The notes under the pieces: model-generated
Seen by the model: the letters and a program-made list of their open reading frames with translations, nothing else
Database searches by the model: none
Told to the model about the DNA's origin: nothing
In this document: positions 32,080 to 58,778 of the stretch, piece by piece
Numbering within the stretch: position 1 is the stretch's first letter
Layout: every line of letters begins with the position of its first letter
DNA from: Polyangiaceae bacterium UTPRO1
GTDB taxonomy: Bacteria; Desulfobacterota; Binatia; UTPRO1
Assembly (NCBI GenBank): GCA_002050235.1
Contig: MWST01000033.1
Location: 1,986 to 65,985, forward strand
Direction of reading: 5' to 3'
DNA: 64,000 nucleotides
Made by a program: the position numbers and the translations under genes

Positions 32080-32141
32080 GCTCGACGGCGGCGCCGGAAA
32101 CCGCCTTGAGGGCGCAAGATCGCCATGTTAGGGAACCTCGG

Positions 32142-33856
<1,715 letters not shown>

Positions 33857-33860
<4 letters not shown>

Positions 33861-38664: not shown

Positions 38665-38684
38665 TCTTCGGAGGAAGGACACCC

Positions 38685-39131: not shown

Positions 39132-39138
39132 ACCCGCC

Positions 39139-39615: not shown

Positions 39616-39617
39616 CC

Positions 39618-40801: not shown

Positions 40802-41790
40802 GGTCGGCCGGCGGCGAGCGCGGCATCGCGCTCCTCATGGTCATCTGGATCTTCATGGTGCTCAGCGTGCTGTCGGCCGAGTTCGCACGCGCCATGCGCG
40901 ACGATGCGATCGCTACCCAGAACCTCGCCGAGGAGGTGCAGGCGCGCGGGGTCGCGATTGCGGGCATCAACCGGGCGATCTACCGACTGCTCTACGCCCG
41001 CCAGGCGGGGGCGGAGGACGACGATCCCGATGCCGTCGGCGCCGACGCTCCGGCGCCGTGGCTTCCCGACGGCCGTTGGCACGAGGAGCCGTACTGGGGC
41101 GGCACCTACGGCGTCCGGCTGATCGACGAAGGCGGCAAGATCTCGCTGAACCGCGCCGACGAGACGCTGCTGCGCAAGGTGTTCGAGACGCTGGGGATGA
41201 AGCCCGACGAACAGGAGGAGATCGTCGACGCCATCATCGACTGGCGCGACAGCGACGACCTCCACCGCCTGCACGGCGCCGAGGACGAGTACTATATGAA
41301 GCTTCCGGAGCCGTACCACGCCAAGAACGGCCCCTTCGACTCGGTGGACGAGCTGCTGCAGGTTCGTGGTATCACCCGCGAACTGTTCTTCGGCGAGCGG
41401 AGCCGGGGGCTCGGATCGGATACGCTGCCGTCGATTCCGCTGCGCGAAGTCTTTTCCGTCTTCAATCGGAGCGCTAACATCAACGTCCGGACGGCGCCGG
41501 TGGCGGTGCTGCGGGTGGTGCTGGGAGGGGACGAGCAGGCCGTGGACGAGATCGTCACTGCGCGCGACGAAGATCCGAGCAGCGTACTGGGCTTGATTCG
41601 CGCCAAGGTTGCGGATCAGGTGCTGGCCCGCCGGCTGGTGGATCGGGCACCGAGCCGGGTCGCGATCGAGGCCCGCGCTATGATGCAGAACGGTCGAGTT
41701 CAGGCCCGGGTCGGGGCGGTAGTGGAGATCCCCGAGGACGGCGACGGTTTCCACATCGATCGGTGGTACGACCGCTTGCCGGCATTCTGA
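40798..41790 (+). CDS. gspK: minor pseudopilin GspK
   Basis: 330 aa; N-terminal hydrophobic segment GIALLMVIWIFMVLSVLSAEFARAMRDDA and a GspK-like body (GKISLNRADETLLRKVFETLGM...ELLQVRGITRELF helix-hairpin-helix-like). Confidence 0.75.
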   Translation: MRSAGGERGIALLMVIWIFMVLSVLSAEFARAMRDDAIATQNLAEEVQARGVAIAGINRAIYRLLYARQAGAEDDDPDAVGADAPAPWLPDGRWHEEPYWGGTYGVRLIDEGGKISLNRADETLLRKVFETLGMKPDEQEEIVDAIIDWRDSDDLHRLHGAEDEYYMKLPEPYHAKNGPFDSVDELLQVRGITRELFFGERSRGLGSDTLPSIPLREVFSVFNRSANINVRTAPVAVLRVVLGGDEQAVDEIVTARDEDPSSVLGLIRAKVADQVLARRLVDRAPSRVAIEARAMMQNGRVQARVGAVVEIPEDGDGFHIDRWYDRLPAF

Positions 41791-41793
41791 TCC

Positions 41794-43209
41794 ATGGATC
41801 TCGCGACCCTCTCACAGCGCCTCCGACGCGTCGATTTTCTCGACGGGCTCGGGATCTATGTCGGCCCCGATCACGTGTCGCTGGCGCTCGTGCGCAAGCG
41901 CCTCCTGCGGGTGGCGCTGGCGCAGAACCGGTCGTATCCCCTGGCGCCGGTTTCGCGGCCGGAGGAGCGGCTGCAGGGGCTCACGGAGGCCGTTGCGGCT
42001 TTCAAGCGCGAGACCCAGGTCGAGCCCGGGGCGGTGCACCTCTGCCTGGCCCGCCAGGAGCTCCTGCTGAACCGCCTCGTCCTCCCGATGGCGGCCCGCG
42101 AGAACCTCGACCAGGTGCTCGAATACGAGATCGAGCGCGTGATTCCTCTGCCGCGCGACGAGATCTTCTACGACTACCAGGTCCGGGAGTCGGGACAGGG
42201 GGAGAATGGCAGGCTCGCGGTGCTCGTGGTCTCGGTACCGCGCCGCGTGGTGAGTCAGTACGTCGATGCGCTCGAACGCGCCGGCATCCGGCCGAAGTCG
42301 GTCGTCGTCGCTGCTGCGGCGCTCGGCGACTACACGGCGTTCTGCCGCGGCGCGCTCGCGCAGCCCGTAGCGCTACTCGTCCGCGACGGGGCCGAGGGCG
42401 AGCTCGCGGTCTTCATCGAGCGCCAGCTCGTCGCCAGCCACGCCTTGCGCGGCCATACTCCGTCGAGCGCCGCGGTGAACGCGATGGTCCGCCGCGATCT
42501 CGCCGAGGTATTCCATGCCGTCGAGACCCCGGTGGACCTCCTCGTCGCTGCGACCCCGAACGGCGGCGGAACCGGCGCCGACCCCGAGGCAGTGCACGAT
42601 CTGTTCGCGCTCGCGAACGGTCGGCTCGACGCGCCGGCGAGCTTCTTCGACGCGGCCGATCCGACCCTGCTGCTTGCCGTCGGGGCTGCGCTCGGCGCGG
42701 TCCGCGAAGGCGTGGTCGACATCGATCTGCTGCCGGCCGAGCACCGCCCGGTGCGGGAAGGCTTCTTCGTTCCGCTCCTGCTGATGGTGGCGGTGGTGGT
42801 GCTGGCACTGGTCTACGGCGGTAGCGTCGTCGTGCGCGACGAGATGACGCGCCGGCGGCTCGCGGCCGAGGTCGAAGCGCTCGAGCCCCAGGTCGCGGCG
42901 ATCAAGAAGCAGGAGGCCGACGTGCGCCGCCTCCAGGCGCGGATCGCGACGCTGACCGAGAACCAGGACCGCCGCGTCGTGCGCTACCTGAAGGAGCTGA
43001 CCGACAAGATCCCGGCCGACGCCTATCTGACCACTCTCCGGTACCGGAACAACCGCATCGAGATGGACGGCTTCGCGACCAAGTCCTCCGAGCTCATTCA
43101 GATCCTCGAGAGCTCGCCGCTGTTCAAGAACGCGCAGTTCACTTCGCCGATCACGCAGGGACAGGGCGGCCAGGAGCGGTTCTCGATAGTGGCGGAGATC
43201 GAAGGATGA
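41794..43209 (+). CDS. gspL: GspL-like assembly protein (PilM-like cytoplasmic domain + TM + PilN-like periplasmic domain)
   Basis: 471 aa; N-terminal actin-like domain, one TM (FFVPLLLMVAVVVLALVY), a coiled coil, then a PilN/GspL periplasmic domain (YLTTLRYRNNRIEMDGFATKSSELIQILESSPLFKNAQF). Confidence 0.7.
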   Translation: MDLATLSQRLRRVDFLDGLGIYVGPDHVSLALVRKRLLRVALAQNRSYPLAPVSRPEERLQGLTEAVAAFKRETQVEPGAVHLCLARQELLLNRLVLPMAARENLDQVLEYEIERVIPLPRDEIFYDYQVRESGQGENGRLAVLVVSVPRRVVSQYVDALERAGIRPKSVVVAAAALGDYTAFCRGALAQPVALLVRDGAEGELAVFIERQLVASHALRGHTPSSAAVNAMVRRDLAEVFHAVETPVDLLVAATPNGGGTGADPEAVHDLFALANGRLDAPASFFDAADPTLLLAVGAALGAVREGVVDIDLLPAEHRPVREGFFVPLLLMVAVVVLALVYGGSVVVRDEMTRRRLAAEVEALEPQVAAIKKQEADVRRLQARIATLTENQDRRVVRYLKELTDKIPADAYLTTLRYRNNRIEMDGFATKSSELIQILESSPLFKNAQFTSPITQGQGGQERFSIVAEIEG

Positions 43210-43889
43210 GCTGGCGGGAGCGATGGGCGCAGCTCAGTGCCCGCGAGCGGCGGCTGATCGAGGCCGCCGGCGGCGTGTTCGGACTCTTTCTGGTGCACTT
43301 GTTGGTGCTCTCGCCCTTCCTCGCCTACCGGCACAATTTGCAGGACGAGATCGTGGCGTACCGCGACCAGGTCGAGAACGGCAAGGCGTACCTCGCGCGG
43401 ACGGCCGACATCACCCGCCAACGCGACACCCTCCACAAGCTCTACCAGCAGGTGCATGCACAGCTCGTTCCCGGCGATACGCCGACGCTCGCGGCCGCCA
43501 ATCTGCAGAACACGCTGCACAGCCTCGCCGGTGAGAAGGGCGTCGAGATCCAGAGCACGCAGGTCATGCGCGACGACACCGTCGGCGAGTTCCGCCGTAT
43601 CGCCGTCCGCATCACCGTGACCGGCGACCTGCAGCAGGTGGCCGACTTTCTGGCCGGCGTCGAGCACGGGCCGACGCGCGTCCTGATCCCGTTCCTCGAG
43701 ATCAGCCGGCGCGGCGCCGTCCTGCGCGGCAAAGCGGCGCGAGCACTGTCGGCGACTATCGAAGTGACCGCGTTCCTCCAGGGAGCCGCAGCGGCGCCGG
43801 ACGGCAAGACGCCGGCTGCGGGTGGCGGTCCGGGGGCGGCCGCGCCGGGCGGTGCGCCGGCAGCGCCGGCGGCGGGAGGTGCCGTCTGA
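43206..43889 (+). CDS. gspM: GspM/PilO-like inner-membrane protein
   Basis: N-terminal TM (GVFGLFLVHLLVLSPFLAY), periplasmic domain and an Ala/Gly/Pro-rich tail; position after gspL. Confidence 0.55.
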   Translation: MSWRERWAQLSARERRLIEAAGGVFGLFLVHLLVLSPFLAYRHNLQDEIVAYRDQVENGKAYLARTADITRQRDTLHKLYQQVHAQLVPGDTPTLAAANLQNTLHSLAGEKGVEIQSTQVMRDDTVGEFRRIAVRITVTGDLQQVADFLAGVEHGPTRVLIPFLEISRRGAVLRGKAARALSATIEVTAFLQGAAAAPDGKTPAAGGGPGAAAPGGAPAAPAAGGAV

Positions 43890-44566
43890 TGCGGCGGGTC
43901 GTGTTCCTCGACGTCCTCCTCCTAGCCGTCGTCGCCGGGCTCCTCTTTCAGATCGCGACGCTGTGGTGGGCCAGCGAGCCCGAGGCCGAGGTAGCGGCGC
44001 CGCACGAGGCGAAAGCTCCCAAGTTCGATCTCCCCAGAGTCGACCGTCGGCCGCCGCCGGCGAACCTGGCGGCCCAGATCGCCGACAAAGACCTCTTCGA
44101 CCAGTCCCGGACGGGGGTGCAGCCCGGTTCGGCCACGGCCGCGGCGCCGTCCGAGCCGGTTCGCCCGCTCACCCTCGTGCTGCTCGGAGTCTCGGGGAGC
44201 GGTCCGGAGCGTGAAGCCCTGGTCAAGGATACGACCCAGCCGAAGCCGCAGTGGCTGCGGCAGGGCGAGGAGACGGGAGGCTACAAGGTCGGGCGGATCG
44301 ACCCCACGGCGATCGTGATGGTAGGACCGGACGGGCAAGAAACGACGCTGGTGATCAACGTCGAGAAGGCGAAGGTGGGCCAGCCCGCTGTCGTGACCGG
44401 ACCGGCCGGCATCCAGCCGACGCCGGCTCCGGCCGCCACGCGGACCGCTCGCGGCGTCATGTCGCCCGGCGCGGTGCGCACCCCGGCGGCCGACATCAGA
44501 GAAAAAATCGAGCGGCTGCGCCAGGAAGCGCGCAAGCGTCGTGGCCAGGCCGTCGAAGCGCAGTAG
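43889..44566 (+). CDS. GspC/PilP-like secretin-interacting protein
   Basis: N-terminal TM (VVFLDVLLLAVVAGLLF), a Pro-rich linker and a small beta domain (YKVGRIDPTAIVMVGPDGQETTLVI) resembling the HR/PilP fold; immediately upstream of the secretin gene. Confidence 0.45.
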   Translation: MRRVVFLDVLLLAVVAGLLFQIATLWWASEPEAEVAAPHEAKAPKFDLPRVDRRPPPANLAAQIADKDLFDQSRTGVQPGSATAAAPSEPVRPLTLVLLGVSGSGPEREALVKDTTQPKPQWLRQGEETGGYKVGRIDPTAIVMVGPDGQETTLVINVEKAKVGQPAVVTGPAGIQPTPAPAATRTARGVMSPGAVRTPAADIREKIERLRQEARKRRGQAVEAQ

Positions 44567-44585: not shown

Positions 44586-47015
44586 ATGATACGAACAGCC
44601 CTGAGGATCGTCGCCGTGATCGTGGCGGTAGGGATCACCGCGATCGCGGGCGCCGAAACCCCGGTGCCGACCCCGGCGGCCACGGCGGTGAACGGCTCGG
44701 CGCACAGCGAGCCGGCCACGGCAGCGACTGCCGCCCCCAACGACTCCGTGGTGCTGAACTTCGAGGGCGCCGACATCCGCGAGGTGATCCACAGTCTCGC
44801 CGACTCCCTCGGCATCAACTACCAGATCGATCCCCGCATCCAGGGGCAGGTGACCATTCGTACCACCGGACCCATCGCCAAGGAGGATCTCTTTCCGATC
44901 TTCAACCGCATCCTGCGCGCGAACGGCATCTCCGCAGTGCAGGTCGGCGACATCTACCAGATCATTCCCGTCGCCGAGGCGAAGACGAAGGCCATCATTC
45001 CGGTGGCGCCCGGCGAACGGCGCCAGGCCGCTCGCGAGGACGCGTTCGTCATCGAGGTGGTGAAGGTCGAGCACGTGGCGGCACAGGAGATGGTGAACGT
45101 CCTGCAGCCGTTCGTGACTCCGGGCGGCGACGTCATCCCGTACGCGCGCGCCAACCTCTTGATCGTGACCGATCTCGAGTCGAACGTGGCGCGCTTGAAG
45201 GATCTGGTGGCGACGTTCGACCGCGACGCCTTCCGCGATCTTCGCGCCAAGGTCTACAAGATCGAGCACGCCAACATCGAAGAGATCGGCCAGGAGCTGA
45301 TCGCCATCATGGACACCTACGGTGTGACGCCGGCGTCGGCCGAGGAGCGCGGGGTCTACGTCATCCCGCTCCAACGCCTGAACTCGCTGGTCATCGTCGC
45401 TTTCAACCCGACGATCTTCGCGGAGATCGATCGCTGGATGAAGCTCCTCGACGTGCCGCCCGAGGAAGGCGCCGGCCGATCGGTGCACGTGTACGCCGTC
45501 GAGAACGCCAAGGCCGCGGACCTCGCCGAGATCCTGAGCCAGCTCTACGGCGAAGGGTCGAGCTCGCGGCAAGGCCAGCAGCAGGGCTTCACGCCGTTCG
45601 GGACGCGCACCCGGGGCGGAGTCGGGCAGCAGGGCGGTCGCGCCGGGCAGCCGGTCGTGGGGCGCCAGGGCGCGCCGCAGATAGCGGCACCGGCGCCGCC
45701 GCGCGTGAACCAGATGCTCGACGACTTCGACGACTACGCACCGCTGCAGCAGTTCGACGATACCGGCGGCGGCGGTATCGGGAGCGCTACTTCGTCGCGG
45801 CGCAGCAGCGGCCGCAGCGGCGGCCTCGGGGGCAGCTCGAGCCGCGGCGGCTTCGGCAACACTCGCAACACGAGCGGCACTTTCGGGGGGACGCAGGGAG
45901 CGCAGGGCTTCGTGCTCGCCGGCGGCGAGCCGGGCGACATCTTCCGCCAGGAAGTGCGCATCGTCGCCGACGACGTCACCAACTCGCTCGTCGTTCTCGC
46001 CACCAAGAAGGACTATGCCGACATCCGCGAGGTGCTGCGCCGGCTCGACGTCGTGCCGCGCCAGGTGCTGATCGAGGTGCTGGTGGCGGAGGTGACGCTC
46101 GGCGACGACATGAAGTTCGGCGTCGAGTGGGCGATGGCCGATCAGAGCCGCAAGGGCGCGCTCGGCCGCATCACCGGCGAGCCCACGAACACCAACGCCG
46201 ACTCCAAGAGCACCAGCCCGAGCCCGAATCTCTTCGATCTCGGCGCTGCGCTCGGTAACCGCTCGACCGACGTCGTGCCGCTTCCCGGCTCCGGCATGTT
46301 CGGCATCATCAGCGACAACCGCAACTTCGCGGTCGTCATGAACGCGGCCGCCGGCAAGAACAAGCTCAAGGTGCTCTCGGCGCCGCATATCATGACCGCC
46401 GACAACCACGAGGCGCACATCCTAGTCGGCAACGAGGTCCCGATCGTGACGACGCAGAGCAACGCCAACTACACCCTGACCGCCGGCACGTCGAACATCC
46501 TGCAGAACATCCAGTATCGCGACACCGGCGTCATCCTCACCGTGCTGCCGCAGGTGAACTCCGAGGGTCTGGTCAACATGCAGATCCGCCAAGAGGTGAG
46601 CCAGGTCGCGAGCGCCACGACGGGCGGCATTCAATCGCCGACGTTCTCGACCCGCGAGTCCGAGACCACGGTCGTCGTGCAGAGCGGAGAAACGATCGTC
46701 ATCGGCGGCATCATCGACGATTCGGTGGACCGCAGCCGCACGGGTGTCCCGTTCCTGATGGACATCCCGGTGGTCGGCCGCGCCTTCCGCATCGAGAGCG
46801 ACACCGTCCGGCGCACCGAGCTGATCGTGCTGCTCACCCCCCACGTGGTGCGCGATCGCCAGGAGTCGCGCTATGCCACCGAGGCGTTCAAGTCGCGGCT
46901 CAAAGGCATGGAGCGCGACCTCGAGCGCTACGATCGCGATCGCCCCGACTACGGCAGCGGACGGCCCTCGCCCGCGACTCTCGACGAGCTGCGGGTCAGC
47001 CCTCCGGCGCCGTGA
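44586..47015 (+). CDS. gspD: type II secretion system secretin GspD
   Basis: 809 aa; signal peptide, N0-N1-N2 domains (VVLNFEGADIREVIHSLADSLGINYQIDPRIQGQVTIRT), a secretin domain (VLSAPHIMTADNHEAHILVGNEVPIVT...GETIVIGGIID) and a C-terminal S-domain-like tail. ATG 44586 is preceded by GGGAGGGAGG. Confidence 0.88.
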   Translation: MIRTALRIVAVIVAVGITAIAGAETPVPTPAATAVNGSAHSEPATAATAAPNDSVVLNFEGADIREVIHSLADSLGINYQIDPRIQGQVTIRTTGPIAKEDLFPIFNRILRANGISAVQVGDIYQIIPVAEAKTKAIIPVAPGERRQAAREDAFVIEVVKVEHVAAQEMVNVLQPFVTPGGDVIPYARANLLIVTDLESNVARLKDLVATFDRDAFRDLRAKVYKIEHANIEEIGQELIAIMDTYGVTPASAEERGVYVIPLQRLNSLVIVAFNPTIFAEIDRWMKLLDVPPEEGAGRSVHVYAVENAKAADLAEILSQLYGEGSSSRQGQQQGFTPFGTRTRGGVGQQGGRAGQPVVGRQGAPQIAAPAPPRVNQMLDDFDDYAPLQQFDDTGGGGIGSATSSRRSSGRSGGLGGSSSRGGFGNTRNTSGTFGGTQGAQGFVLAGGEPGDIFRQEVRIVADDVTNSLVVLATKKDYADIREVLRRLDVVPRQVLIEVLVAEVTLGDDMKFGVEWAMADQSRKGALGRITGEPTNTNADSKSTSPSPNLFDLGAALGNRSTDVVPLPGSGMFGIISDNRNFAVVMNAAAGKNKLKVLSAPHIMTADNHEAHILVGNEVPIVTTQSNANYTLTAGTSNILQNIQYRDTGVILTVLPQVNSEGLVNMQIRQEVSQVASATTGGIQSPTFSTRESETTVVVQSGETIVIGGIIDDSVDRSRTGVPFLMDIPVVGRAFRIESDTVRRTELIVLLTPHVVRDRQESRYATEAFKSRLKGMERDLERYDRDRPDYGSGRPSPATLDELRVSPPAP

Positions 47016-47034
47016 GCTGCGCGCCGACGCCGCG

Positions 47035-48627
47035 ATGATTCCCTGGCTCGGCCGTGGGCTCCTGATCGCGGCCGTGGCGGCGACGTTCGCCAACGCGGTC
47101 GGCAACGGCTTCGTCTACGACGACCAGCTGTTGATCGTCGACGATCCCGCCGTGCGTATGCCGCTCTCGTCCGGCTTTGCGGGGTTGCACTACCGGCCGC
47201 TGCGCACGCTCTCCTACCGCCTCGATCACGCCGTCGCCGGCATGGACCCACGTGCGTTCCACCTGAGCAACATCCTCTATCACGGCGCCACGACGCTGCT
47301 GGTGCATGCGGCGCTCGGCGCCCTCGACGCCTCGCCTGCGGCGGCGCTCGCGGGGGCGCTCGTCTTCGCCGTGCATCCGGTGCAGGCGGACGCGGTGAGC
47401 TACGCCGCCGGCCGCCGTGACGTGCTCTGCGGGCTCTTCTACGCGCTCGGCGTCGTCGCCTATCTGCGCTGGCGCCGCCGTCCGCACCCGGCTCTGCTCG
47501 CGCTCGTCGCCGCCGCCTACGTGCTCGCGATCCTCGCCAAGGAGATGGCGATCACCTTGCCGCTCGTCTGCCTCCTGATCGATCGCTGGGAGCGTCGGCG
47601 CCCGGGCCTGGCGCCGGCGGCGGGAGCGCTGACGGCGCGGCGCCTGGCGTATCTCGCAGCCCTCGCAGTGGCGGGCGCGCTGGCACTCGGGTTCGCCTAT
47701 GGCGGGCACGTGCTCCACATCGCCACCGCGCGTCCGTGGCACGGCGGCAGTTTCGCCGCCAACGCGGCGACGGTGGGCCGGGTGTGGGTGAAATACGCAG
47801 AGCTCGTCGTCTGGCCGACGAGGCTCTCGGCCGACTACAGCTACGACGCGTTTCCGGTCTCGACGACGCTCTTCGACCCGCTGGCGCTCGCGAGCTTCGT
47901 CGTGCTCGCCGGGCTCGCCGCGGCCGCGGTCTGGCGCTGGCGGCGCGGCGACCTGATCGGCCTCGGGCTGACGTGGGCCGCCGTTGCCCTCCTGCCCGTC
48001 TCGCATCTCGTGCCCTTCCGCGAGCTCCTGGCGGAGCACTACCTCTACGTACCCATGATGGGGATCGCGCTCGTCGCCGCCGGAGTGGTCGACGGAGCCC
48101 TCGCTCGCTGGCCGGGGCGGCGGACCATCGTAGCGGCCGGCGTCCTCGTGGTCGTCGGCGCGCTCGCCGCCCGGACGGTCGTGCGCAACCGCGACTGGAG
48201 GGATCGCGTCACCCTCTGGTCGGCGACGGTGGCGGTGGTGCCGCGCTGCGCCCGCGCCCAGTACAACCTCGGCCAGGCGTATTTCGAGCGCAACCGCTTC
48301 GCCGACGCCGAGCAGGCGTGGCTGGAGGCGGCGGCGCTCGAGCCCGGTGATATCGAAACCGTCCGTAGTCTCGCCAAGCTCTATTACCGCATCGGGAAGT
48401 ACGATCTGGCGGCGGCGAAGATCGCCGCCGTCATTGCCGCCAAGTCCGGCGACGGCGAGGCGTGGACGCTCGCCGGCTACATCGCGCTCGATCGCGGTAT
48501 GCCGGAGCAGGCCAGGGAGTATTTCGACGGTGCCCTGGAGCGCCTGCCCGCCGCTCGGACCGCGCCGGCGCAGGCGGGTCGGGAGCGGGCGCAGCGCGCC
48601 GCCGGCGGCGCGGCGAGGACGCCGTGA
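47035..48627 (+). CDS. GT-C-fold membrane glycosyltransferase-like protein with C-terminal TPR repeats (PMT_2/TMTC-like)
   Basis: About 10 TM segments with a first-loop GFVYDD acidic motif, then TPR-like repeats (AQYNLGQAYFERNRFADAEQAWLEAAALEP...LAKLYYRIGKYDLAA); 19 nt after gspD. Confidence 0.55.
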   Translation: MIPWLGRGLLIAAVAATFANAVGNGFVYDDQLLIVDDPAVRMPLSSGFAGLHYRPLRTLSYRLDHAVAGMDPRAFHLSNILYHGATTLLVHAALGALDASPAAALAGALVFAVHPVQADAVSYAAGRRDVLCGLFYALGVVAYLRWRRRPHPALLALVAAAYVLAILAKEMAITLPLVCLLIDRWERRRPGLAPAAGALTARRLAYLAALAVAGALALGFAYGGHVLHIATARPWHGGSFAANAATVGRVWVKYAELVVWPTRLSADYSYDAFPVSTTLFDPLALASFVVLAGLAAAAVWRWRRGDLIGLGLTWAAVALLPVSHLVPFRELLAEHYLYVPMMGIALVAAGVVDGALARWPGRRTIVAAGVLVVVGALAARTVVRNRDWRDRVTLWSATVAVVPRCARAQYNLGQAYFERNRFADAEQAWLEAAALEPGDIETVRSLAKLYYRIGKYDLAAAKIAAVIAAKSGDGEAWTLAGYIALDRGMPEQAREYFDGALERLPAARTAPAQAGRERAQRAAGGAARTP

Positions 48628-49487
48628 GCGCCGGCACCCCGCCGCTCCGTATCGTCGTTGCCGGCGAGCGCCGCGCACCGTGGACGGCGCCGCTCGCGAT
48701 GGCACGGGCCGTGTGGTCGGCGCGCGGCGTCGTCCACGCGCTCGTCGTCCGCGATCTTCGCGGTCGCTACGTCGGGTCGATGCTCGGCGCGTTCTGGTCG
48801 ATCGCGCAGCCGCTCCTCCAACTCGCGACCTACACGTTCGTCTTCGCGACGGTGATGAAGGTGCGAGTAGCGGATGCCGCGGGCGGCGAGGTGCCGTTCG
48901 TCCTCTACCTCGCCTGCGGACTCTTCCCGTGGCTCGCGATCCAGGAGGCGGTGACGCGCGGAGTCACGTGCTTGGTCGACAATCCGACGCTGGTCAAGCG
49001 GGTGATCTTCCCGGTCGAGGTGCTGCCGGTCGAGCTCGCCGGCGCCGCGATCGTGCAACAGGTGATCGCGACGGCGCTGCTGCTCGTACTCATGGCGGCG
49101 TTCGGTTTCCCGCCGCGTCCGGCGCTGGCGGTGTGGCCGCTGTTGCTCGCGGCCGAGGTCGGCATTGCCGTCGGCATAGCCTGGGCCGTGGCGGCCTTGC
49201 ACGTCTTGTTCCGTGATACCGCGCAGGTCCTGGGCGTGCTGCTGCCGGTCTGGTTCTATCTGACGCCGATCCTCTACCCGCAGCACCTGGTGCCGCCGTT
49301 CCTGCAGCCGGTGCTGGCGCTGAACCCGCTCACCGAGCTCGTGCAGGCGCACCGCGACGTGCTGCTCTCCGGCATCGTGCCGACGGCCGCCGCCGGCCTG
49401 CGGATCGCCGTCACGAGCCTCGTCTTCTTCGCCTGCGGCGCCTGGGTCTTCACGCGGGCCCGAGGCGAGCTCGCAGACCTGGTGTGA
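48624..49487 (+). CDS. wzm: ABC-2 type polysaccharide export permease (Wzm/KpsM-like)
   Basis: 6-TM ABC-2 permease; RGVVHALVVRDLRGRYVGSMLGAFWSIAQPLLQLATYTFVF; GTG 48624 overlaps the preceding TGA (alternative ATG 48687). Confidence 0.8.
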   Translation: MSAGTPPLRIVVAGERRAPWTAPLAMARAVWSARGVVHALVVRDLRGRYVGSMLGAFWSIAQPLLQLATYTFVFATVMKVRVADAAGGEVPFVLYLACGLFPWLAIQEAVTRGVTCLVDNPTLVKRVIFPVEVLPVELAGAAIVQQVIATALLLVLMAAFGFPPRPALAVWPLLLAAEVGIAVGIAWAVAALHVLFRDTAQVLGVLLPVWFYLTPILYPQHLVPPFLQPVLALNPLTELVQAHRDVLLSGIVPTAAAGLRIAVTSLVFFACGAWVFTRARGELADLV

Positions 49488-50698
49488 CCGTGATCGCGGT
49501 GCGAGCGGAGAATCTCGGCAAGGCCTATCGGCTCTACGCGCGCCCGCTCGATCGGGCGCTCGAGTGGCTCTCGCGGCGGTCGCGACACCGGGAGTTCTGG
49601 GCGCTCCAGGCCCTCGACCTCGACGTGCGCGCCGGCGAGTCGGTCGGAATCATCGGCGAGAACGGCGCCGGCAAGTCGACGCTGCTGGCGCTCTTGACCG
49701 GCACGGCGCGGCCGACGACCGGGCGCGTCGCGGTGCGCGGCACGCTGGCCGCGATCCTCGAGCTCGGCGCCGGATTCCACCCCGAGTTCAGCGGCCGGCA
49801 CAATGCCCGGATGCACGCGGCGCTCTTCGGCATCACCGGCGGCGATGCCGAGCGGCGCATCGAAGAGGCGATCGCCTTCTCCGAGCTCGGAAGCTTCATC
49901 GACCAGCCCGTGCGCACGTACTCGTCGGGCATGTACGTGCGTCTCGCCTTCGCCCTCGCCGTCAGCGTCGATCCCGACGTGCTCGTCATCGACGAGGCGC
50001 TCGCCGTCGGCGACCAGCACTTCCAGACGAAGTGCGTCGATCGCATCACCGAGTTCCGCGAACGCGGCAAGACGATTCTCTTCTGCTCGCACGCGATGTA
50101 CCAGGTGAAGAAGCTCTGCGATCGCGCGCTCTGGCTGCGCCGGGGGAGGACGGCGGCGCTCGGGTCCGCCGACGAGGTGATCGACGCCTACCTCGAGTAC
50201 ACGCGCGCCCGCGATGCCGAGCAGGCGGTGTCGCCGGCGGCGGCCGGGCGTGACCCGGCGCTCCTGCGGCTCGTCGATGTTGTCATCGAGGGCGGAGAGG
50301 GCGGCGATCCGCCGACCTGGCGGAGCGGTGCGCCGTTCACGGCGCGGGTCGTGCTCGAACGCAGCCGCGACGCGGGCATCGAACCGGGGGTCGGCATCGC
50401 CTTCGTGCGCAACGACGGACTCGTTTGTTATTGCGTGTCTACCGAGATGGACGGGGTGGCGATGCATGCCCGCGCCGACGGTCGCTTCGAGGCGGCGCTG
50501 CACGTACCCAGCCTGCCGCTGCTCGGCGGCGGCTACTACCTGAACGTGGCTACGACCGACAACCGCTCGGCGCTCATCGTCTACGACGTACGGGAGCGCT
50601 GCTGCCCTTTCCGCGTGCGCAATCCCTCCGACGAGTACGGCGTGGTGCGGATGGATCACCAGTGGCTCGGACCACGCAGCGGATCCGGCTGCGATTGA
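49484..50698 (+). CDS. wzt: polysaccharide ABC exporter ATP-binding protein with C-terminal carbohydrate-binding extension (Wzt-like)
   Basis: Walker A GENGAGKST, signature YSSGMYVRLAFA, Walker B VLVIDEALAVGD; about 155 extra C-terminal residues beyond the NBD. Confidence 0.82.
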   Translation: MTVIAVRAENLGKAYRLYARPLDRALEWLSRRSRHREFWALQALDLDVRAGESVGIIGENGAGKSTLLALLTGTARPTTGRVAVRGTLAAILELGAGFHPEFSGRHNARMHAALFGITGGDAERRIEEAIAFSELGSFIDQPVRTYSSGMYVRLAFALAVSVDPDVLVIDEALAVGDQHFQTKCVDRITEFRERGKTILFCSHAMYQVKKLCDRALWLRRGRTAALGSADEVIDAYLEYTRARDAEQAVSPAAAGRDPALLRLVDVVIEGGEGGDPPTWRSGAPFTARVVLERSRDAGIEPGVGIAFVRNDGLVCYCVSTEMDGVAMHARADGRFEAALHVPSLPLLGGGYYLNVATTDNRSALIVYDVRERCCPFRVRNPSDEYGVVRMDHQWLGPRSGSGCD

Positions 50699-50766: not shown

Positions 50767-51192
50767 ATGGATCGCGCGACGGCGCTGGCAAGGATTTTCT
50801 TGGTGATGCTGGGCGTCGCGCTCGTCGCCTCGAGCGGCTGTCAGAAAGCCGACCCGGTCGCGGCCCTGAAGGAGCGGGTGGCGTCGTACTGGGGGCTCAA
50901 GCAATCCAAGAGCTGGCCCGAGGTCTATGACAAGTACGTCGATCCCGAAGCCAAGAAGACGCTTGGCCGCGACGCCTTCCTGAAGCGGCGATTCCTGGCC
51001 TTCGACATCCTAAGTTACGAGATCGGCGCTGTTCAGGAGGTAGGGGACACGGCCACGGTTGAGGTCGCCAACGAGGTCAACGTCCCCCTCAAGACGCCCC
51101 AGGGCGAGCTCACCTTCATCAAGAAGCAGGTTGCCACGAAAGATCAGTGGGTACGGCGGGATGGAATCTGGTACGTGGTCCTCGGCGAGTAG
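50767..51192 (+). CDS. small periplasmic lipoprotein (NTF2/DUF4878-like)
   Basis: MDRATALARIFLVMLGVALVASSGC signal with a lipobox-like SSGC; 141 aa; alternative upstream ATGs at 50713 and 50734. Confidence 0.4.
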   Translation: MDRATALARIFLVMLGVALVASSGCQKADPVAALKERVASYWGLKQSKSWPEVYDKYVDPEAKKTLGRDAFLKRRFLAFDILSYEIGAVQEVGDTATVEVANEVNVPLKTPQGELTFIKKQVATKDQWVRRDGIWYVVLGE

Positions 51193-51203: not shown

Positions 51204-51233
51204 TTGACACCTTTCGAGGCCCCGAGGTAGGAT
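51204..51233 (+). promoter_or_regulatory. candidate sigma70 promoter TTGACA - 17/18 nt - TAGGAT upstream of the secreted-protein gene
   Basis: gccTTGACAcctttcgaggccccgaggTAGGATgcg read in the 246-nt gap 51193-51438. Confidence 0.35.
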
Positions 51234-51438
51234 GCGCCCGCGTTTTTGGCCGGAGGGTGTTCGGGGGGGTCGCGGGTCTTCCATTGGGTCTCGAATCGAC
51301 AGTCACAAAGAAGGACGCCCCTGTTGAGGACGCCCCTATGTTTTTCAGAGATCGCGCCATCACCGGACCGGCGCGATGTGCAGTAGGGTCAGTGAAGTCT
51401 CACAGCGAACGAGCGGAGACGAAAGGAGAGAGAGCACT

Positions 51439-52506
51439 ATGAGGAAGGGCATCAAGTTTGGTTTCGGAGCGGCGCTCGCGGGTGTGGCGTTGGCCACGTG
51501 TCCCGTACAGGCGGCCGAGCTGGGTGACACGGTTACCACGCTCGAGCCGGCGGTGGCGCTGGTCATGCCGTTCGACGTTACGGACGGTCGGGCGAGCTTC
51601 CAGCTCGTGAGCCGCATCGGCGGCGAGGACTCGGATCCCCTGGCGACCCACTGGTCGTTCTGGTCGGAGAGCTGCGATCACCTCGCGGACGTCTTCATCT
51701 GCTTGACCCCGCGCGACACCGTGGTCGTCGACCCGACGGCGCTCCAGGGGCAGATCCAGGTCGGCCAGACCAACACCAACACCGGCCCGGTCATCAACCT
51801 GACCGGTGAGAAGGGCTTCGTCACGGTCACCGCATTCGACGCCGACATCAACAGCCAGACCTGCGACGTCGAGGATCCGGAAGCCCCCACGGGCACCCCG
51901 GCCCTCATCGGCAGCTGGGTGGTGGCGAACACGTCGACCAACGCGGCCTTCGGCAACAACGCCATCGGCATCGTCGATGGTCAGACGATCCCGGCGGGCG
52001 GGGATTTCTTCCTGACCGGCCCGGTCGGCGCCGGTCTGTTCCTCCAGACCTTCAACCCTCTCGACCTCCAGGACTCCGAGGTTTTCTTCATCGGGCTGGC
52101 ATTCCCCGCGGGCAATGCTCAGTTCTCGGACTCCGAGGTCGGTCCGATCCCGTCGGCGCTCGTGAACGGCGCGGCCGTCTGCTGCAACGCGCAGTACTAC
52201 GACAACCTCGAGACTGCCGTCTCGCTGCCTAACGTCTGTCTGACGTGCTCGAGCACGGCAAAGATCGCGGAGAACGCGTCCCTCAAGGACATCAAGCTCC
52301 CCGCGATCATCCCGGCCTCGATCCCGGCAGAGACTTCGGGCTTCGTCCGCCTCACCAACTGCAAGGTGGGCAGCGACGAGGGTGACGTTCCGATCGGCGA
52401 CACGACGATCAACGGCATCGACTACTCGACCTTCCTCTTCGCCTATCACGGCATGGCGGTGGGTCCGTTCGGCACTTCGACGCTCGGCCGCTACACGGCC
52501 GAGTAA
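51439..52506 (+). CDS. secreted hypothetical protein (Sec signal peptide, Cys-containing, Thr/Asn/Gly-rich)
   Basis: MRKGIKFGFGAALAGVALATCPVQA|AELG signal peptide with an AGGAGAGAGAG Shine-Dalgarno; 355 aa. Composition is depleted in Arg/Ala relative to neighbours. No recognisable family. Confidence 0.6.
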   Translation: MRKGIKFGFGAALAGVALATCPVQAAELGDTVTTLEPAVALVMPFDVTDGRASFQLVSRIGGEDSDPLATHWSFWSESCDHLADVFICLTPRDTVVVDPTALQGQIQVGQTNTNTGPVINLTGEKGFVTVTAFDADINSQTCDVEDPEAPTGTPALIGSWVVANTSTNAAFGNNAIGIVDGQTIPAGGDFFLTGPVGAGLFLQTFNPLDLQDSEVFFIGLAFPAGNAQFSDSEVGPIPSALVNGAAVCCNAQYYDNLETAVSLPNVCLTCSSTAKIAENASLKDIKLPAIIPASIPAETSGFVRLTNCKVGSDEGDVPIGDTTINGIDYSTFLFAYHGMAVGPFGTSTLGRYTAE

Positions 52507-52539: not shown

Positions 52540-52580
52540 CGGGGGGACGACGTCTAGTGCGTCGTCCCCTCTCTTTTTGT
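52540..52580 (+). terminator. rho-independent terminator
   Basis: GGGGGACGACG-tctagtg-CGTCGTCCCC followed by TCTCTTTTTGT, 34 nt after the stop at 52506. Confidence 0.75.
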
Positions 52581-52606: not shown

Positions 52607-54040
52607 ATGAGTGTTCTCTTGCGGCTCCTCCTCGTGCCGCTCGTCGTGGTAGCCCTGGGATGCCGCCCGAAAGGGCCGGAGCTCGGCGAGATCGAGCGGC
52701 TGAATGGTGAGACCGGCAACGTCGGACGCTACCAGGTAGCGTACTACGCCTCGATCTACGCGCTGCCGAACGGCGGTGCCGTGGCAGCGTGGATGCGCGA
52801 GGAGCCCCCGTATCGTCCGGTCGTCTTCCGCCAGGCACCCGAGGCCCTTCAGCCGTTCGGGCCCGAGGCGTACCTGAGCCCCGATTCCATGCTGAAGACG
52901 ATCACCATCGGCCTCACCATGCTGCCGGGCCCGAGCGGGGGAGAGTTCTACGCGGCCTGGCAGGCGCGCAAGCCCGAGACCGGGGACAAGTTCATCGTCT
53001 TTCGCAGCACCCGGGATGGGGGTGCCACCTGGGCGGAGCCGCGCCAGTTGAATACCGAGCCCATGGCGTTCGCGCCGTCGATCGCGACCGATCGCCACGG
53101 CGGCGTGACGGTCGCCTGGCCCGATGAGCGCGGGTACACGACCGGGATCTTCGCCAACACCTCCTTCGATCGCGGTGCTACCTGGCTGCCGCAGGAGGTG
53201 CGGATCGACGGCGGCGAGGGCGGCGGCTTCATGGCGAACGCGGTCTCGGTGGCGAGCGACGGCGAGAAGCGCGTGATCGCAGCCTGGGAGGAGCAGGGCG
53301 GGAAGGCCGGCCGGGTAGTGATGGTCGCTCTTTCGAACGATCGCGGCGCAACATGGGCGCCGCCGGTGCGGGTCGACGACGGCAGGGGACGCGGCGCTCC
53401 GCTCGCTCCGCGCGCCGCCTTTGCCGGAGACCGCGCCGTCGTCCTGTGGACGGCAGCAGTGAGCGGCGTCAATGCGTTCGCCGAGGTCTGGGCGGATTCC
53501 TCGGTCGACGGGGCGCACTGGGGCGAGGACGTGCTCTTGCACGAGCAGCCGGGCGGTGCGGCGCCCATAGCGCAGCTCTACTCCGACGGAGAGCGGGCGG
53601 CGGCCGTGTTCGAGGCGGCGGCCAGAGGCGGGAGCGAGTCGGTATTTTTCGTCCGGCTCGAGAAGGATGGCTCCTGGACTCCGGGCAAGGATGCGCTGGC
53701 GCCGCTCACGCCCCCGAGCGTGAAGGCCGGCGCGCCGCGCCTCGTCGCCGCGGCCGACGGCACGCTCTTCCTGGTGTACGCGGAAGACGGTCGCAGCGTG
53801 CGCCTGCTGCGCTCGCGGGACGACGGCGCGACCTGGGAGCCGCCCGTCCTCGTCGTCGAGCGTCCCGGGGGCGAAGGTCAGCCGACGGTGCGGTTTCCGC
53901 AGGTGACCGTCGGCGGCCGCACCGCCTACGTGATGTGGGAGGAGTGGGGCGACGCGCGCGCCGTCATCAAGACGCTCGGCGACGCGCAGACCAAGCGCCC
54001 GCCGCTCGACCTGTACGTGCGCCGCATCGCCTTTCACTGA
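52607..54040 (+). CDS. BNR/Asp-box repeat (sialidase-fold) lipoprotein
   Basis: Signal/lipobox LVVVALGC; four Asp-box repeats STRDGGATW, SFDRGATW, SNDRGATW, SRDDGATW. Confidence 0.7.
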   Translation: MSVLLRLLLVPLVVVALGCRPKGPELGEIERLNGETGNVGRYQVAYYASIYALPNGGAVAAWMREEPPYRPVVFRQAPEALQPFGPEAYLSPDSMLKTITIGLTMLPGPSGGEFYAAWQARKPETGDKFIVFRSTRDGGATWAEPRQLNTEPMAFAPSIATDRHGGVTVAWPDERGYTTGIFANTSFDRGATWLPQEVRIDGGEGGGFMANAVSVASDGEKRVIAAWEEQGGKAGRVVMVALSNDRGATWAPPVRVDDGRGRGAPLAPRAAFAGDRAVVLWTAAVSGVNAFAEVWADSSVDGAHWGEDVLLHEQPGGAAPIAQLYSDGERAAAVFEAAARGGSESVFFVRLEKDGSWTPGKDALAPLTPPSVKAGAPRLVAAADGTLFLVYAEDGRSVRLLRSRDDGATWEPPVLVVERPGGEGQPTVRFPQVTVGGRTAYVMWEEWGDARAVIKTLGDAQTKRPPLDLYVRRIAFH

Positions 54041-54088
54041 GGATCGTGGCCGCGGCAGCGCCTCGGAGGAACAGGGGCCTGGTGAGCA

Positions 54089-56908
54089 ATGCGGGCTTCT
54101 CCTAGCCCCATGTCGGTCGTGCCGGCGGCGCTCCTGTTCCTGGCGCTGCACGCTCTCTTTTTCACCGACGTCGTGTTCGAGGGGCGGACGTTGTCGGCCG
54201 CGTCGCTGACGGCGGGACTGACGCCGCACGGGCCGCTCGGAGCCCCCGATCCCCCGCCGCCTCCGCATCTCCTCGACGTCGAGGGCGCCGCATGGGTCGA
54301 CGAGCCGAGCCCGTATATGGCGCGCGCCGCCTTTGCCGCCGGCGAGCTTCCGCTCTGGAGCCCAGCCAGCGGCCTCGGGAGCCCGCTCGCCGCGAATCTG
54401 AACTCCGGCGCCGCCAACCCGCTGCAGCTGCCGCTCGATCTCCGGCCGTCCCCGGGGCACGCCGACCTCTTCTACCTGGCGCGGCTGCTGCTCCTCGCCT
54501 GCGCCACCTGGGCCTTGCTGCGCGAGATCCGGCTCGATGCGACGGCGGCCTTTCTCGGCGCCGCGCTCGTCACCTACGGCGGCTATCCTCTGGCGTGGAT
54601 CGCGCACCATCCGCTCTCGAGCGAGGTGTTCCTGCCGCTCGTACTGCTCGGCTGCGAGCGCGGCCGGGCGGGGCGGGCGGGCGGTTGGGCGCTGCTCGCG
54701 ATCGGCGGTGCCGGATCCCTCCTCGGCGGCAAGCTGCAGGCGAGCCTCCTCTGCTTCGCATTCGTCGCCCTCTGGACGCTCGCCCGCGCTCCGCGCCGCT
54801 ATGGTGGCGGCGGCACACGTACGCTTGCGGCTGCCGCCGCCGGCCTCGGCCTCGCGGTCATGCTTGCCGGATTCCTGCTCGTACCGGCGCTCGAGGCCAT
54901 GGGGCGCGCCTCGGGGCTCACGCTCGGCGGCCGCTCACAGCTCGCGAGCTACGTAGTGCCGTGGTCGTCGCTCGCGAGCCTCGTCGTCCCCGCCCTCTTC
55001 GTACCCGCCGGCCGCGCCTTCGCCGACGGCTGGCTGACGCCGTCGCTCGGCGTCGCCGCGGTCCTGCTCGCGGCGCTCGCCGTGGCAGCGCGCGCGGCGC
55101 CGATGCGCCACGTCGCTCTCGTCTGCGTCGGCTGGGCGGCCCTCCTGCTGGCGCGGAACATCGGCGTCTTCGGCGAGCTGCCGCTCCGCGTGCCGGCGCT
55201 GCGCGGCATTCTGTTCGTCAAGTACACTTTCACGATCGTCTTCGCGCTCGCGGTGGCGGCGGCGATCGGGTGCGACGCGCTCCTCGCGGGGCGGATCGAC
55301 GCGCGCTGTGCCCGCCGCACGCTCTTCGGCGCCTGGCTCGTCCTCGCCGCTCTCGCCGCGGCGGCGGTCGCGATAGGACCGCTAGCTACGCGCCCGTCGA
55401 CGCTCGTGCTGCCGGCGCTGCTGTCACTGGCGCTGGCGATCGCGGTGAGTCTCTGGCGGCGCCGGCAGGTCGGGAACGGCGGCGTCGGCGCCGTGCTCGC
55501 GGCGATGGCTCTGGTGGAACTGTGGGTCGCGGCGCCGCACCGACACCCGCCGCGGCTCGACCCGTATCGAGCTCCGCCGTACGTCGATTTCCTCCGCGGC
55601 GCGGCAGCGGGCCGGATCATCGCCGATGCCGATCTCGCGGTGCCGCTGACCTCGGCAGCCGCGGGCCTCGCCGACCTCCGCACCATCGATGTGCTGACGC
55701 CGGGCGCCACGTATGCATTCTTCACGCGGCTCGTGAGCTTCTGCGATCGGGTGATCCACTTCACGGTCGATCCCGACGTACCGCTCGCCGCGACCGCCCC
55801 TGCCGCCGATCTCGCCGGCGTGCGCTGGGTGGTCTCGCGCCGGCCGCTCGCGGTCGCGGACCTGGAGGCGCGGGTGCGCCGGCAGGTGGGACGGGAGCGG
55901 ACGGCGCGCCTGCTCGCGGGCCTCACGCGCTTGGCGGTCGCCGGCGGTCCGCTCGCGATCGGGCCGATCGCCGCGGCCGGGGAGGAGCGGTTCGCCTTCA
56001 CCTTGCCGACGCCGTTCACTCTCGACGTCGCCGGGGTCACCGAGGCGGGTGAGCTGGCGTTCGGAGCCCTGGTGCGGGGCGGGGCGGCGGCGGTGGAGCT
56101 GCGGACGGTGGTCGACGGGGTTGCTTCGGAAGCGACGGGGGAAGCGCAGCGGCTCGCGGCCGGCGAGGCGTGGCACGAGGAGCGCATCGCGCTGGCGGGC
56201 GCCGGCGCGCCGCGGGCGGTACGGGTACGGGTGACGGTGCGCAGCGGCGACGGCGCCCCGGCCGTGGTATCGCTCGGCGACCTCGGCTTCGGGCCCGGCG
56301 CTGCGGTCGAGGCCCGCCTGGCCGCCGAGCGCGGGGTGCGGCACGCCGCCGAGGCGGCGGCGCTCCGCGAGGTATTCCGCGACCCGGAGGTCGGCGCCGT
56401 GGTGTACGAGAACGTGAATGCGCTCCCGCGCGCCTTCCGCGTCCGCCACGTCGAGCCGATAGCGAGCGAGGAGGCGGCGCTCACCCGCCTCGGCGACGGC
56501 TTCGACTTCCGCACCGGCGCTCTCGTGCCGCTTAAGGAGGCCGCGGCGGTGGCGGCCGCACTCGGCGGCGTCGCCAACGGCGGCGACGAGGGACGCGCCA
56601 TGATCGCTCGGGAGACGCCGGGATCGGTCGTCGTCGCCACCGAGGGCGCGACACCGGCGCTCCTCGTGCTCGCCGACCTCGCGTATCCGGGGTGGCGCGC
56701 CGATGTCGACGGCCGGGAGACGACCGTGCATACGGTCGATGGGCTGCTGCGCGGCGTGCTCGTGCCCGCGGGAGCGCACGAGGTGACGTTTCGTTATCGG
56801 CCGCTGTCGTGGCTCGTGGGGAGTCTGCTGACGCTGTTCGCTGCGGCGCTGCTGGTGCCGTACGGACGCTACGCCGGGCGTTGCCATGCCGGCGGTGCGG
56901 AGTCGTGA
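54089..56908 (+). CDS. YfhO-family GT-C membrane glycosyltransferase-like protein
   Basis: 939 aa; polytopic N-terminal half, a large extracytoplasmic domain, and the characteristic YfhO C-terminus YPGWRADVDGRETTVHTVDGLLRGVLVPAGAHEVTFRYRP plus a final TM; the start may be ATG 54110. Confidence 0.6.
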   Translation: MRASPSPMSVVPAALLFLALHALFFTDVVFEGRTLSAASLTAGLTPHGPLGAPDPPPPPHLLDVEGAAWVDEPSPYMARAAFAAGELPLWSPASGLGSPLAANLNSGAANPLQLPLDLRPSPGHADLFYLARLLLLACATWALLREIRLDATAAFLGAALVTYGGYPLAWIAHHPLSSEVFLPLVLLGCERGRAGRAGGWALLAIGGAGSLLGGKLQASLLCFAFVALWTLARAPRRYGGGGTRTLAAAAAGLGLAVMLAGFLLVPALEAMGRASGLTLGGRSQLASYVVPWSSLASLVVPALFVPAGRAFADGWLTPSLGVAAVLLAALAVAARAAPMRHVALVCVGWAALLLARNIGVFGELPLRVPALRGILFVKYTFTIVFALAVAAAIGCDALLAGRIDARCARRTLFGAWLVLAALAAAAVAIGPLATRPSTLVLPALLSLALAIAVSLWRRRQVGNGGVGAVLAAMALVELWVAAPHRHPPRLDPYRAPPYVDFLRGAAAGRIIADADLAVPLTSAAAGLADLRTIDVLTPGATYAFFTRLVSFCDRVIHFTVDPDVPLAATAPAADLAGVRWVVSRRPLAVADLEARVRRQVGRERTARLLAGLTRLAVAGGPLAIGPIAAAGEERFAFTLPTPFTLDVAGVTEAGELAFGALVRGGAAAVELRTVVDGVASEATGEAQRLAAGEAWHEERIALAGAGAPRAVRVRVTVRSGDGAPAVVSLGDLGFGPGAAVEARLAAERGVRHAAEAAALREVFRDPEVGAVVYENVNALPRAFRVRHVEPIASEEAALTRLGDGFDFRTGALVPLKEAAAVAAALGGVANGGDEGRAMIARETPGSVVVATEGATPALLVLADLAYPGWRADVDGRETTVHTVDGLLRGVLVPAGAHEVTFRYRPLSWLVGSLLTLFAAALLVPYGRYAGRCHAGGAES

Positions 56909-58764: not shown

Positions 58765-58778
58765 TTTTCGCCCGTGCT

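Follow-up and report, generated by a model that had tools for sequence, protein, structure and literature searches.

A type II secretion locus interleaved with glycan genes, beside a candidate surface protein gene, in a Binatia-type bacterium

Why does the gene for an outer-membrane secretin lead straight into the genes for an O-polysaccharide exporter? This question is raised by a 64,000-nt stretch of DNA from Polyangiaceae bacterium UTPRO1 (contig MWST01000033.1, positions 1,986 to 65,985; referred to as the window). In it gspD, the secretin gene of a type II secretion system (T2SS), is followed by a gene for a GT-C glycosyltransferase with a C-terminal tetratricopeptide repeat (TPR) domain, named GT-C/TPR here, and by wzm and wzt, which encode an ATP-binding cassette (ABC) exporter. 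As set out below, the junction of these four genes, to which a preliminary description of the DNA had pointed, is one part of a much larger interleaving of T2SS and glycan genes, with a neighbouring candidate cargo gene that this description had missed. The window has a G+C content of 69%, and all credible genes of the 64 kb, as well as all its features given below, lie on the + strand.

The secretin junction and its conservation

The product of gspD (44586..47015) scores 512.6 bits against TIGR02517 (cut-off 351.35) and carries the Pfam domains N0, Secretin_N and Secretin. The ATG of gspD is preceded by GGGAGGGAGGG, a GTG at position 44541 is an alternative start, and the stop codon is TGA. 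A gap of 19 nt separates this stop (47015) from the ATG (47035) of the GT-C/TPR gene (47035..48627), which encodes a PMT/TMTC-like protein of 530 aa. The ABC-2 permease gene wzm (48624..49487; Pfam ABC2_membrane 57.8 bits) begins with a GTG that overlaps the GT-C/TPR stop as GTGA, and the GTG of wzt (49484..50698) overlaps the wzm stop in the same manner. Wzt combines an ABC ATPase (ABC_tran 75.5 bits) with a C-terminal glycan-binding Wzt_C domain (52.4 bits, cut-off 30.4). A scan of the intergenic gaps between 32000 and 51900 found no terminator-like sites, and folding of the gspD/GT-C junction was no better than that of shuffled sequence (z = +0.79). This agrees with the preliminary description, in which gspD ran into the GT-C/TPR gene across a gap free of a terminator hairpin and then into wzm and wzt by GTGA overlaps; all coordinates were verified. 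It had also taken the four genes as co-transcribed, and this is the most economical reading, since the gaps are tiny or replaced by 4-nt overlaps, no terminator intervenes, and every relative keeps the junction. The four genes are likely to lie on one transcript.

Because the whole window is co-directional and unrelated genes abut, the short gap between gspD and the GT-C/TPR gene is by itself not beyond chance, and operon calls from spacing alone are unreliable in this genome. We compared the window proteins with 17 independent related loci, mostly from Binatia-type metagenome-assembled genomes (MAGs), by use of tblastn and called genes. The GT-C/TPR homologues form an orthologous group with 50–99% identity, found in MAGs labelled Candidatus Binatia, Deltaproteobacteria and similar. 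In all of the related loci (17/17) gspD is followed by the GT-C/TPR gene, down to a GT-C identity of 38%. The first possible GT-C start lies 5–25 nt past the gspD stop, and at most 85 nt past it in the deepest branch. Directly after the GT-C/TPR gene, wzm-wzt was found in 15 of the 16 loci of sufficient length. Conservation in relatives had been put forward as a test for a chance fusion, and with this outcome the junction exceeds chance by its conservation, not by the length of the gap.

The conserved block is larger than the junction. The order gspF...gspD-GT-C-wzm-wzt, followed by the genes for a small lipoprotein, for a secreted protein that we call Unk51 and for a BNR-repeat protein (all described below), is kept in the related loci L001, L003–L007, L009–L019 and L022. 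It is invariant down to identities of 38% for GT-C, 47% for GspD and 36% for Unk51 (L019, L022). Upstream of gspF the gene content is variable, with a GT4 glycosyltransferase gene in L001, L006, L017 and L023 and an ABC transporter in L003. Downstream, the BNR gene is always kept, and the later order (YfhO-like, membrane protein, methyltransferase, sulfatase) varies among relatives.

T2SS and glycan genes in one array

The junction lies in a co-directional array of 22 kb (28.9–51.2 kb) with about 20 tight junctions. Between 28949 and 50698 every gap measures 38 nt or less, and many genes are joined by 4-nt overlaps. The genes follow each other in the order lptD, RmlA-like, a 309-nt gap, RmlB, Gmd, short-chain dehydrogenase/reductase (SDR), gspE, GT2, phosphodiesterase, GT4, gspF to gspM, GspC-like, gspD, GT-C/TPR, wzm, wzt and lipoprotein. 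The T2SS is interleaved with glycan genes on both sides, by the GT2, phosphodiesterase and GT4 genes between gspE and gspF and by GT-C/TPR-wzm-wzt past gspD.

The ATPase encoded by gspE (32106..33860; Pfam T2SSE 493 bits) passes the GspE model TIGR02533 (type_II_gspE; 680.3 bits, cut-off 630.25) and fails the PilB model (621.7 bits, cut-off 675.65), which marks the system as a T2SS rather than a type IV pilus. The genes gspF, G, H, I, J, K, L (PilM/PilN-like) and M and a GspC-like gene occupy 37435..44566, with gaps of −35 to +38 nt. Pfam matches were obtained for T2SSF (210 bits), T2SSG (124), GspH (22.9), T2SSJ (36.3), T2SSK_1st (68.1) and T2SSM_b (60.8). GspI is matched by N_methyl alone, and GspL matches PilM_2/PilN, with T2SSL below the cut-off. 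The GspC-like protein scores 17.6 bits against T2SSC, below the cut-off of 27, and its place between gspM and gspD is conserved. The locus thus encodes GspD, GspE, GspF, the major pseudopilin GspG, the minor pseudopilins H–K and the L/M assembly proteins of a T2SS, together with a Wzm and Wzt pair, with a glycan-binding C-terminal domain on Wzt, as in O-polysaccharide exporters.

The glycan genes begin with an RmlA-like sugar-1-phosphate nucleotidyltransferase gene (27875..28639; Pfam NTP_transferase 187 bits; NCBIfam rmlA 257 bits, below the cut-off), which overlaps the lptD stop by 4 nt. The first gene past the 309-nt gap, the sole long gap upstream of the array, is rmlB, encoding a dTDP-glucose 4,6-dehydratase (28949..30139; TIGR01181 473 bits, cut-off 365). 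It is followed by the gene for the GDP-mannose 4,6-dehydratase Gmd (30136..31098; TIGR01472 439 bits, cut-off 415), whose GTG start overlaps the preceding stop, and by an SDR sugar-nucleotide reductase or epimerase gene (31102..32079), with matches to Pfam GDP_Man_Dehyd and Epimerase and to no NCBIfam model at its cut-off. Past gspE, and overlapping its stop by 4 nt, lies a GT2 gene (33857..34825; Pfam Glycos_transf_2) for a polyprenyl-phosphate sugar synthase-like protein of the ArnC/GtrB/PgfS/AglJ type; its best NCBIfam matches, all below the cut-off, were ArnC (186 bits), PgfS (113) and AglJ (82). A PF01663 phosphodiesterase of the alkaline-phosphatase superfamily (34841..36211; Pfam Phosphodiest 125 bits), which is without obvious signal peptide, and a GT4 (group 1) glycosyltransferase (36208..37407; Pfam Glyco_trans_1_4 and Glycos_transf_1) are encoded next, before gspF.

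A metagenome scan with GspE revealed a close relative, L023, that shares the order gspE-GT2-phosphodiesterase-GT4-gspF. The phosphodiesterase-like gene holds its position between gspE and gspF both in L023 (at about 12711) and in the deep relative L052 (at about 1011–2472); the order in L052 is gspE-phosphodiesterase-gspF, without the flanking GT2 and GT4 genes. In about 35 T2SS loci from other lineages gspE is directly followed by gspF, and the interleaving between these two genes is therefore specific and not generic. The interleaving of T2SS and glycan genes is lineage-specific and stable.

One locus of another phylum, L063 (Kiritimatiellia; GT-C/TPR gene at 8156–9706), carries such a gene directly upstream of gspE and was considered as further support. 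It was rejected as a coincidental adjacency, because its relatives L103 (8001–9575) and L104 (8001–9644) keep the block of RNase-J-like, Era, AIRS and GT-C genes and lack the downstream T2SS. Contigs of the Kiritimatiellia/Lentisphaerae type carry the TMTC-like GT-C/TPR gene directly after genes for a beta-CASP RNase, Era and an AIR-synthase-related protein, a conserved neighbourhood that is unrelated to secretion.

The GT-C/TPR protein of the window has the GT-C membrane fold, and its closest structural matches are Pmt4 and Pmt2, which places the fold closest to the protein O-mannosyltransferases. An acidic motif, FVYDD, is found in the first extracytoplasmic loop (FVYDDQLLIVDD, residues 26–37), and at least 90% of 23 orthologues retain D29 and D30. 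In the model we counted eleven long hydrophobic helices. The TPRs are clear; DUF1736 reaches 25.3 bits, below the Pfam cut-off of 27, and many homologues are annotated with this domain. The resemblance to other TPR proteins is generic, with equal scores for hundreds of them; PilW and PilF are among the structural matches, and the score against the NCBIfam model for PilW is 21.8 bits at a cut-off of 154.

GspD contains a Gly-rich insert of 141 aa between the N3 domain and the secretin core. Throughout the lineage such inserts measure 130–160 aa, contain 24–55% Gly and are of low complexity (about residues 340–480 in the window), with the conserved islands FTPFGTRQRGG, DDFDDYAPLQQFD and GYVLAGGEPGDIFRQ; in L019 (gspD at 7252–9894) the insert consists of nearly pure GGLGGGG repeats. 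We considered the insert as a Ser/Thr-rich linker for O-glycosylation and rejected this, since Ser and Thr make up just 7–22%, the inserts are mainly Gly-rich, and that of L019 is mostly Gly and Leu.

A candidate cargo gene and exchanged parts

The last gene of the array (50767..51192) encodes a small lipoprotein with the lipobox VASSGC and weak SnoaL/NTF2-like hints. It is conserved in all relatives and always precedes the candidate cargo gene. The protein of about 140 aa, which is a lipoprotein in the window and membrane-anchored in the related locus L020 (12008–12466), may serve as a pilotin or chaperone or in anchoring.

Twelve nt past the lipoprotein stop begins a sigma-70-like promoter, TTGACA-N18-TAGGAT (51204..51233), and no other site of this kind lies between 32 and 51.9 kb. 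The leader behind it, about 200 nt long, contains a 5′ untranslated region (UTR) box, GAACGAGCGGAG (51407..51418), and then the strong ribosome-binding site AAAGGAGAG. Both promoter hexamers and the leader box, for which the consensus across relatives is GAACGAG(C/T)GGAG, are conserved in relatives whose proteins are 37–49% identical. The gene behind this leader, Unk51 (51439..52506), encodes an all-beta protein of 355 aa with nine Cys residues that is predicted to be secreted and belongs to a rare, unnamed family. It has a signal peptide, is acidic (pI 4.1) and shows a beta-sandwich fold with matches resembling carbohydrate-binding modules. An intrinsic terminator follows (52541..52580), with a GC-rich stem of 13 bp and a U tract (fold z = −3.0; no shuffled sequence folds as well). 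Its position is conserved in 9 relatives with differing stem sequences.

On account of this combination of promoter, leader, ribosome-binding site, terminator and secreted acidic product we take Unk51 as a candidate T2SS cargo, and it may be an abundant secreted protein. Between its own promoter and terminator the gene appears to form a self-contained unit, probably with strong and independent transcription. Strong promoters and long leaders are typical of S-layer genes. Our literature search yielded nothing usable on T2SSs in Binatia/Binatota or on leader and terminator features of S-layer genes. No Rfam family matched in the window, the Unk51 leader included. Codon adaptation relative to the ribosomal protein genes of the window was uninformative as a proxy for expression, because G+C content at third codon positions dominates; the mean of the ribosomal protein genes themselves was 0.66, lower than that of most other genes.

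The Unk51 family also includes a copy in L105 that adjoins genes for an MFS transporter, an alpha-galactosidase-like protein and a Kelch-repeat protein, and another MAG contains two copies (P0124, P0142). Long members are P0361 (1245 aa), P0368 and P0400, and one of them has three tandem copies of the domain. Extra domains in the long relatives are DUF4215, a Cys-rich repeat, and VWA, each found once, and these fusions hint at extracellular or adhesive roles.

In L020 several parts of the locus are exchanged. Its T2SS is orthologous to that of the window (GspD 73%, GspG 85%), and the gene after gspD encodes a distinct GT-C/TPR paralogue with 42% identity. The small protein encoded after it (152 aa) is homologous to the window lipoprotein (28% identity, E 2e-9), and the next gene, for an unrelated secreted protein of 476 aa, stands behind the same type of promoter and the leader box GAACGAGTGGAG (promoter and leader at 12478–12730). 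We considered this protein as a divergent Unk51, which was rejected, as profile comparison detected no similarity. A Bac_transf gene adjoins wzm in this locus. That L020 keeps the architecture while parts are exchanged is as expected of a functional module with variable surface components.

A Pfam search of the region past Unk51 (52607..61963) pointed to further glycan and envelope genes; beside the BNR-repeat lipoprotein and a GT2 glycosyltransferase, this region encodes a YfhO-like protein, a double methyltransferase and a polytopic membrane protein. Within 54089–60842 these comprise a YfhO-like protein of 939 aa, the polytopic membrane protein of 619 aa, which matched no family even at E = 1, and a protein of 693 aa with two methyltransferase stretches. 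The latter could be a chain-terminating cap enzyme that matches Wzt_C. Upstream, the gene run of the window comprises ribosomal proteins, argS, the trp operon, accD, folC and lptD, and then the glycan/T2SS array.

Proposed function, rival explanations and known systems

We propose that the array, of which the gspD junction is the 3′ part, forms a lineage-conserved envelope super-operon and a coupled locus, in which a surface protein would be secreted by the T2SS and anchored or glycosylated via the glycan pathway, and we give this reading a probability of roughly 0.5. The T2SS would export Unk51, and probably its paralogues as well, to the cell surface, where the glycan exported by Wzm/Wzt would retain it. 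This glycan would most likely be displayed as the O-chain of lipopolysaccharide (LPS), since lptD heads the same gene array, and the dTDP- and GDP-6-deoxyhexose genes would be part of its pathway. In addition or instead, the GT-C/TPR protein may glycosylate the cargo in the periplasm before export, using a lipid-linked sugar made by the GT2 enzyme encoded next to gspE; the TPR domain of the GT-C/TPR protein should face the periplasm. Within this proposal we infer actual co-transcription, the role of Unk51 as cargo, glycan anchoring and protein glycosylation from the sequence. The coupling of T2SS and glycan is plausible, backed by conservation, by the swapping of modules and by an independent precedent.

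Several observations weigh against such a coupling. All conserved loci belong to one lineage, so that vertical inheritance could explain much of the synteny. Unrelated neighbours are packed as tightly as the array (trpA/accD 20 nt, accD/folC 8 nt, folC/lptD −7 nt). GT-C paralogues occur in glycan loci without a T2SS, in L002 (54% identity) and in L021 (37%), and in L020 a different wzt-wzm pair lies about 3.7 kb away from the GT-C gene. Among the window open reading frames (ORFs) scanned there was no match to the prepilin peptidase GspO/PilD, which may be encoded outside these 64 kb, and none to a WaaL ligase or an initiating phosphoglycosyl transferase. Unk51 has no detectable similarity to known S-layer proteins, T2SS substrates or any characterised protein. 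Its 79%-identical paralogue (L105, 8001–9068, on the 7-Mb contig of L001, ena:ERZ25039588:contig_1259) lies 2.5 Mb away with no T2SS nearby, which on its own lends the cargo idea no support and does not exclude it. The T2SS and the O-polysaccharide/LPS genes could be mere neighbours in a large co-directional array of envelope and housekeeping genes, left together within one lineage by slow rearrangement; co-transcription, if real, would then give them shared regulation alone. This explanation would account for the tiny gaps in a co-directional window, the single lineage, the GT-C paralogues without T2SS and the displaced wzt-wzm pair. We nevertheless hold it to be unlikely, since the block persists to protein identities of 36–47% while its flanks rearrange, since glycan genes interrupt the T2SS between gspE and gspF and also follow gspD, since L020 swapped parts and kept both the architecture and the cassette of cargo promoter and UTR, and since Aeromonas evolved the same linkage independently. 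Should the coupling not be functional, the locus would caution that tight junctions by themselves, in compact, co-directional genomes of high G+C content do not imply shared function.

Other explanations link the glycan genes to the secretion machine itself. The GT-C/TPR protein might O-glycosylate the secretin, for instance at its insert, or the pseudopilins, or its TPR domain might act as a pilotin-like factor for GspD assembly. The invariant junction of the two genes would fit such a role, which we consider decidedly improbable in view of the generic TPR matches, the low Ser and Thr content of the insert and the coincidental nature of the sole apparent second case (L063); as a pilotin, the small lipoprotein would do just as well. 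Of two mechanisms suggested in the preliminary description, that the GT-C enzyme modifies the secretin is in essence part of this explanation, and the other would have the polysaccharide required around the secretin pore; support for both is weak and indirect. A further possibility is that the outer-membrane exit for the Wzm/Wzt glycan is the secretin, or the T2SS as a whole, in a hybrid of ABC transporter and T2SS export. In keeping with this, the window ORFs scanned included no gene of the OPX/Wza, PCP or KpsD/E type. A study that reports GspD and PilQ to be required for exopolymer secretion in myxobacteria and cyanobacteria also speaks for it, but contains no gene-cluster evidence that links them to ABC exporters (PMC12475490). 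Against it, Wzt proteins with a Wzt_C domain are characteristic of O-polysaccharide that is joined to LPS and exits by way of WaaL and Lpt, and lptD heads the array; the presence of all pseudopilins and of a candidate protein cargo is consistent with a conventional protein secretion system. We regard this exit as very improbable indeed, and a form of it in which the Wzm/Wzt polymer leaves through GspD, either as such or as a glycoconjugate that the GT-C/TPR protein makes from it, by a hybrid route for glycans and glycoproteins as highly improbable. If true, passage of glycan through GspD would be the first genomic support for secretins as polysaccharide nozzles.

If the coupling of T2SS and glycan is functional, the locus would provide a concrete candidate role for one GT-C/TPR protein out of the many in bacteria that await characterisation. 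It would point to a possible major surface protein of Binatia-type bacteria, a group that is frequent in soils and, to our knowledge, known from metagenomes only. It would also offer a defined gene set for the question of whether T2SS cargo is glycosylated or anchored by glycan during secretion.

Parts of the locus resemble several known systems. ABC-dependent export of O-polysaccharide is known from the E. coli O9a type and from the common polysaccharide antigen of P. aeruginosa with gmd/rmd/wzm/wzt. The window shares with these Wzm and a Wzt bearing Wzt_C, Gmd with an SDR reductase, GT4 enzymes and a large methyltransferase nearby; it differs in that the T2SS splits the genes and that the initiating transferase and WaaL were not seen in the window. 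As in the ArnC/ArnT, GtrB/GtrC and PgfS systems, an ArnC/PgfS-like GT2 is encoded in the same array as membrane proteins of the GT-C fold or YfhO-like type, whereas the GT2 of the window stays below every equivalog cut-off and no GtrA-type flippase was identified. From their co-location alone we infer that this GT2 pairs with the GT-C protein. TPR pilotins (PilF/PilW, Tgl, TadD) likewise have a TPR protein encoded beside a secretin gene; those proteins are small outer-membrane lipoproteins, and that of the window is a polytopic inner-membrane GT-C enzyme. The TMTCs have an acidic DD/DE motif in the first extracytoplasmic loop, 11 transmembrane helices and lumenal TPRs (PMC7801869). With TMTC1-4 and the PMTs the window protein shares the N-terminal GT-C domain, the DD motif in this loop and C-terminal TPRs, and putatively a DUF1736-like loop, but those proteins are eukaryotic, whereas the window protein is bacterial and encoded inside a T2SS operon, with DUF1736 below the cut-off. 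GspD/PilQ secretins were proposed as exopolymer 'slime nozzles' by Zuckerman, So and Hoiczyk 2025 (PMC12475490). That proposal also ties a GspD-family secretin to polysaccharide export; it is biochemical and genetic, whereas the link described here is drawn from genomes alone and can be explained in a more ordinary way.

The closest counterpart is found in Aeromonas, and the view of the preliminary description that no locus joining a secretin and an O-polysaccharide exporter had been described does not hold. The ABC-2 O-antigen clusters of Aeromonas salmonicida A450 and A. hydrophila AH-1 contain, between wzm and wzt, a T2SS (spsE to spsD, including the secretin) and the S-layer gene vapA, and this S-layer (A-layer) is reportedly attached through LPS (Merino et al. 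2015; PMC4483657, PMC4413209). Both there and in the window a dedicated, complete T2SS shares one cluster with wzm, wzt and genes for O-antigen sugars and glycosyltransferases, and vapA adjoins secretin and exporter genes, as does the candidate Unk51 here. In Aeromonas the T2SS and vapA form a single insertion between wzm and wzt, whereas the glycan genes of the window are interspersed. The Aeromonas gene tables list no GT-C/TPR enzyme, whereas the window encodes one together with an ArnC/GtrB-like synthase, and its cargo candidate comes from an unnamed family without known relatives, in uncultured organisms of another phylum. A functional coupling in the window would be a second, independently evolved case, after Aeromonas, of a dedicated T2SS wired to an ABC-exported glycan for building the cell surface, and the first with a PMT/TMTC-like protein-glycosyltransferase homologue inside the secretion operon.

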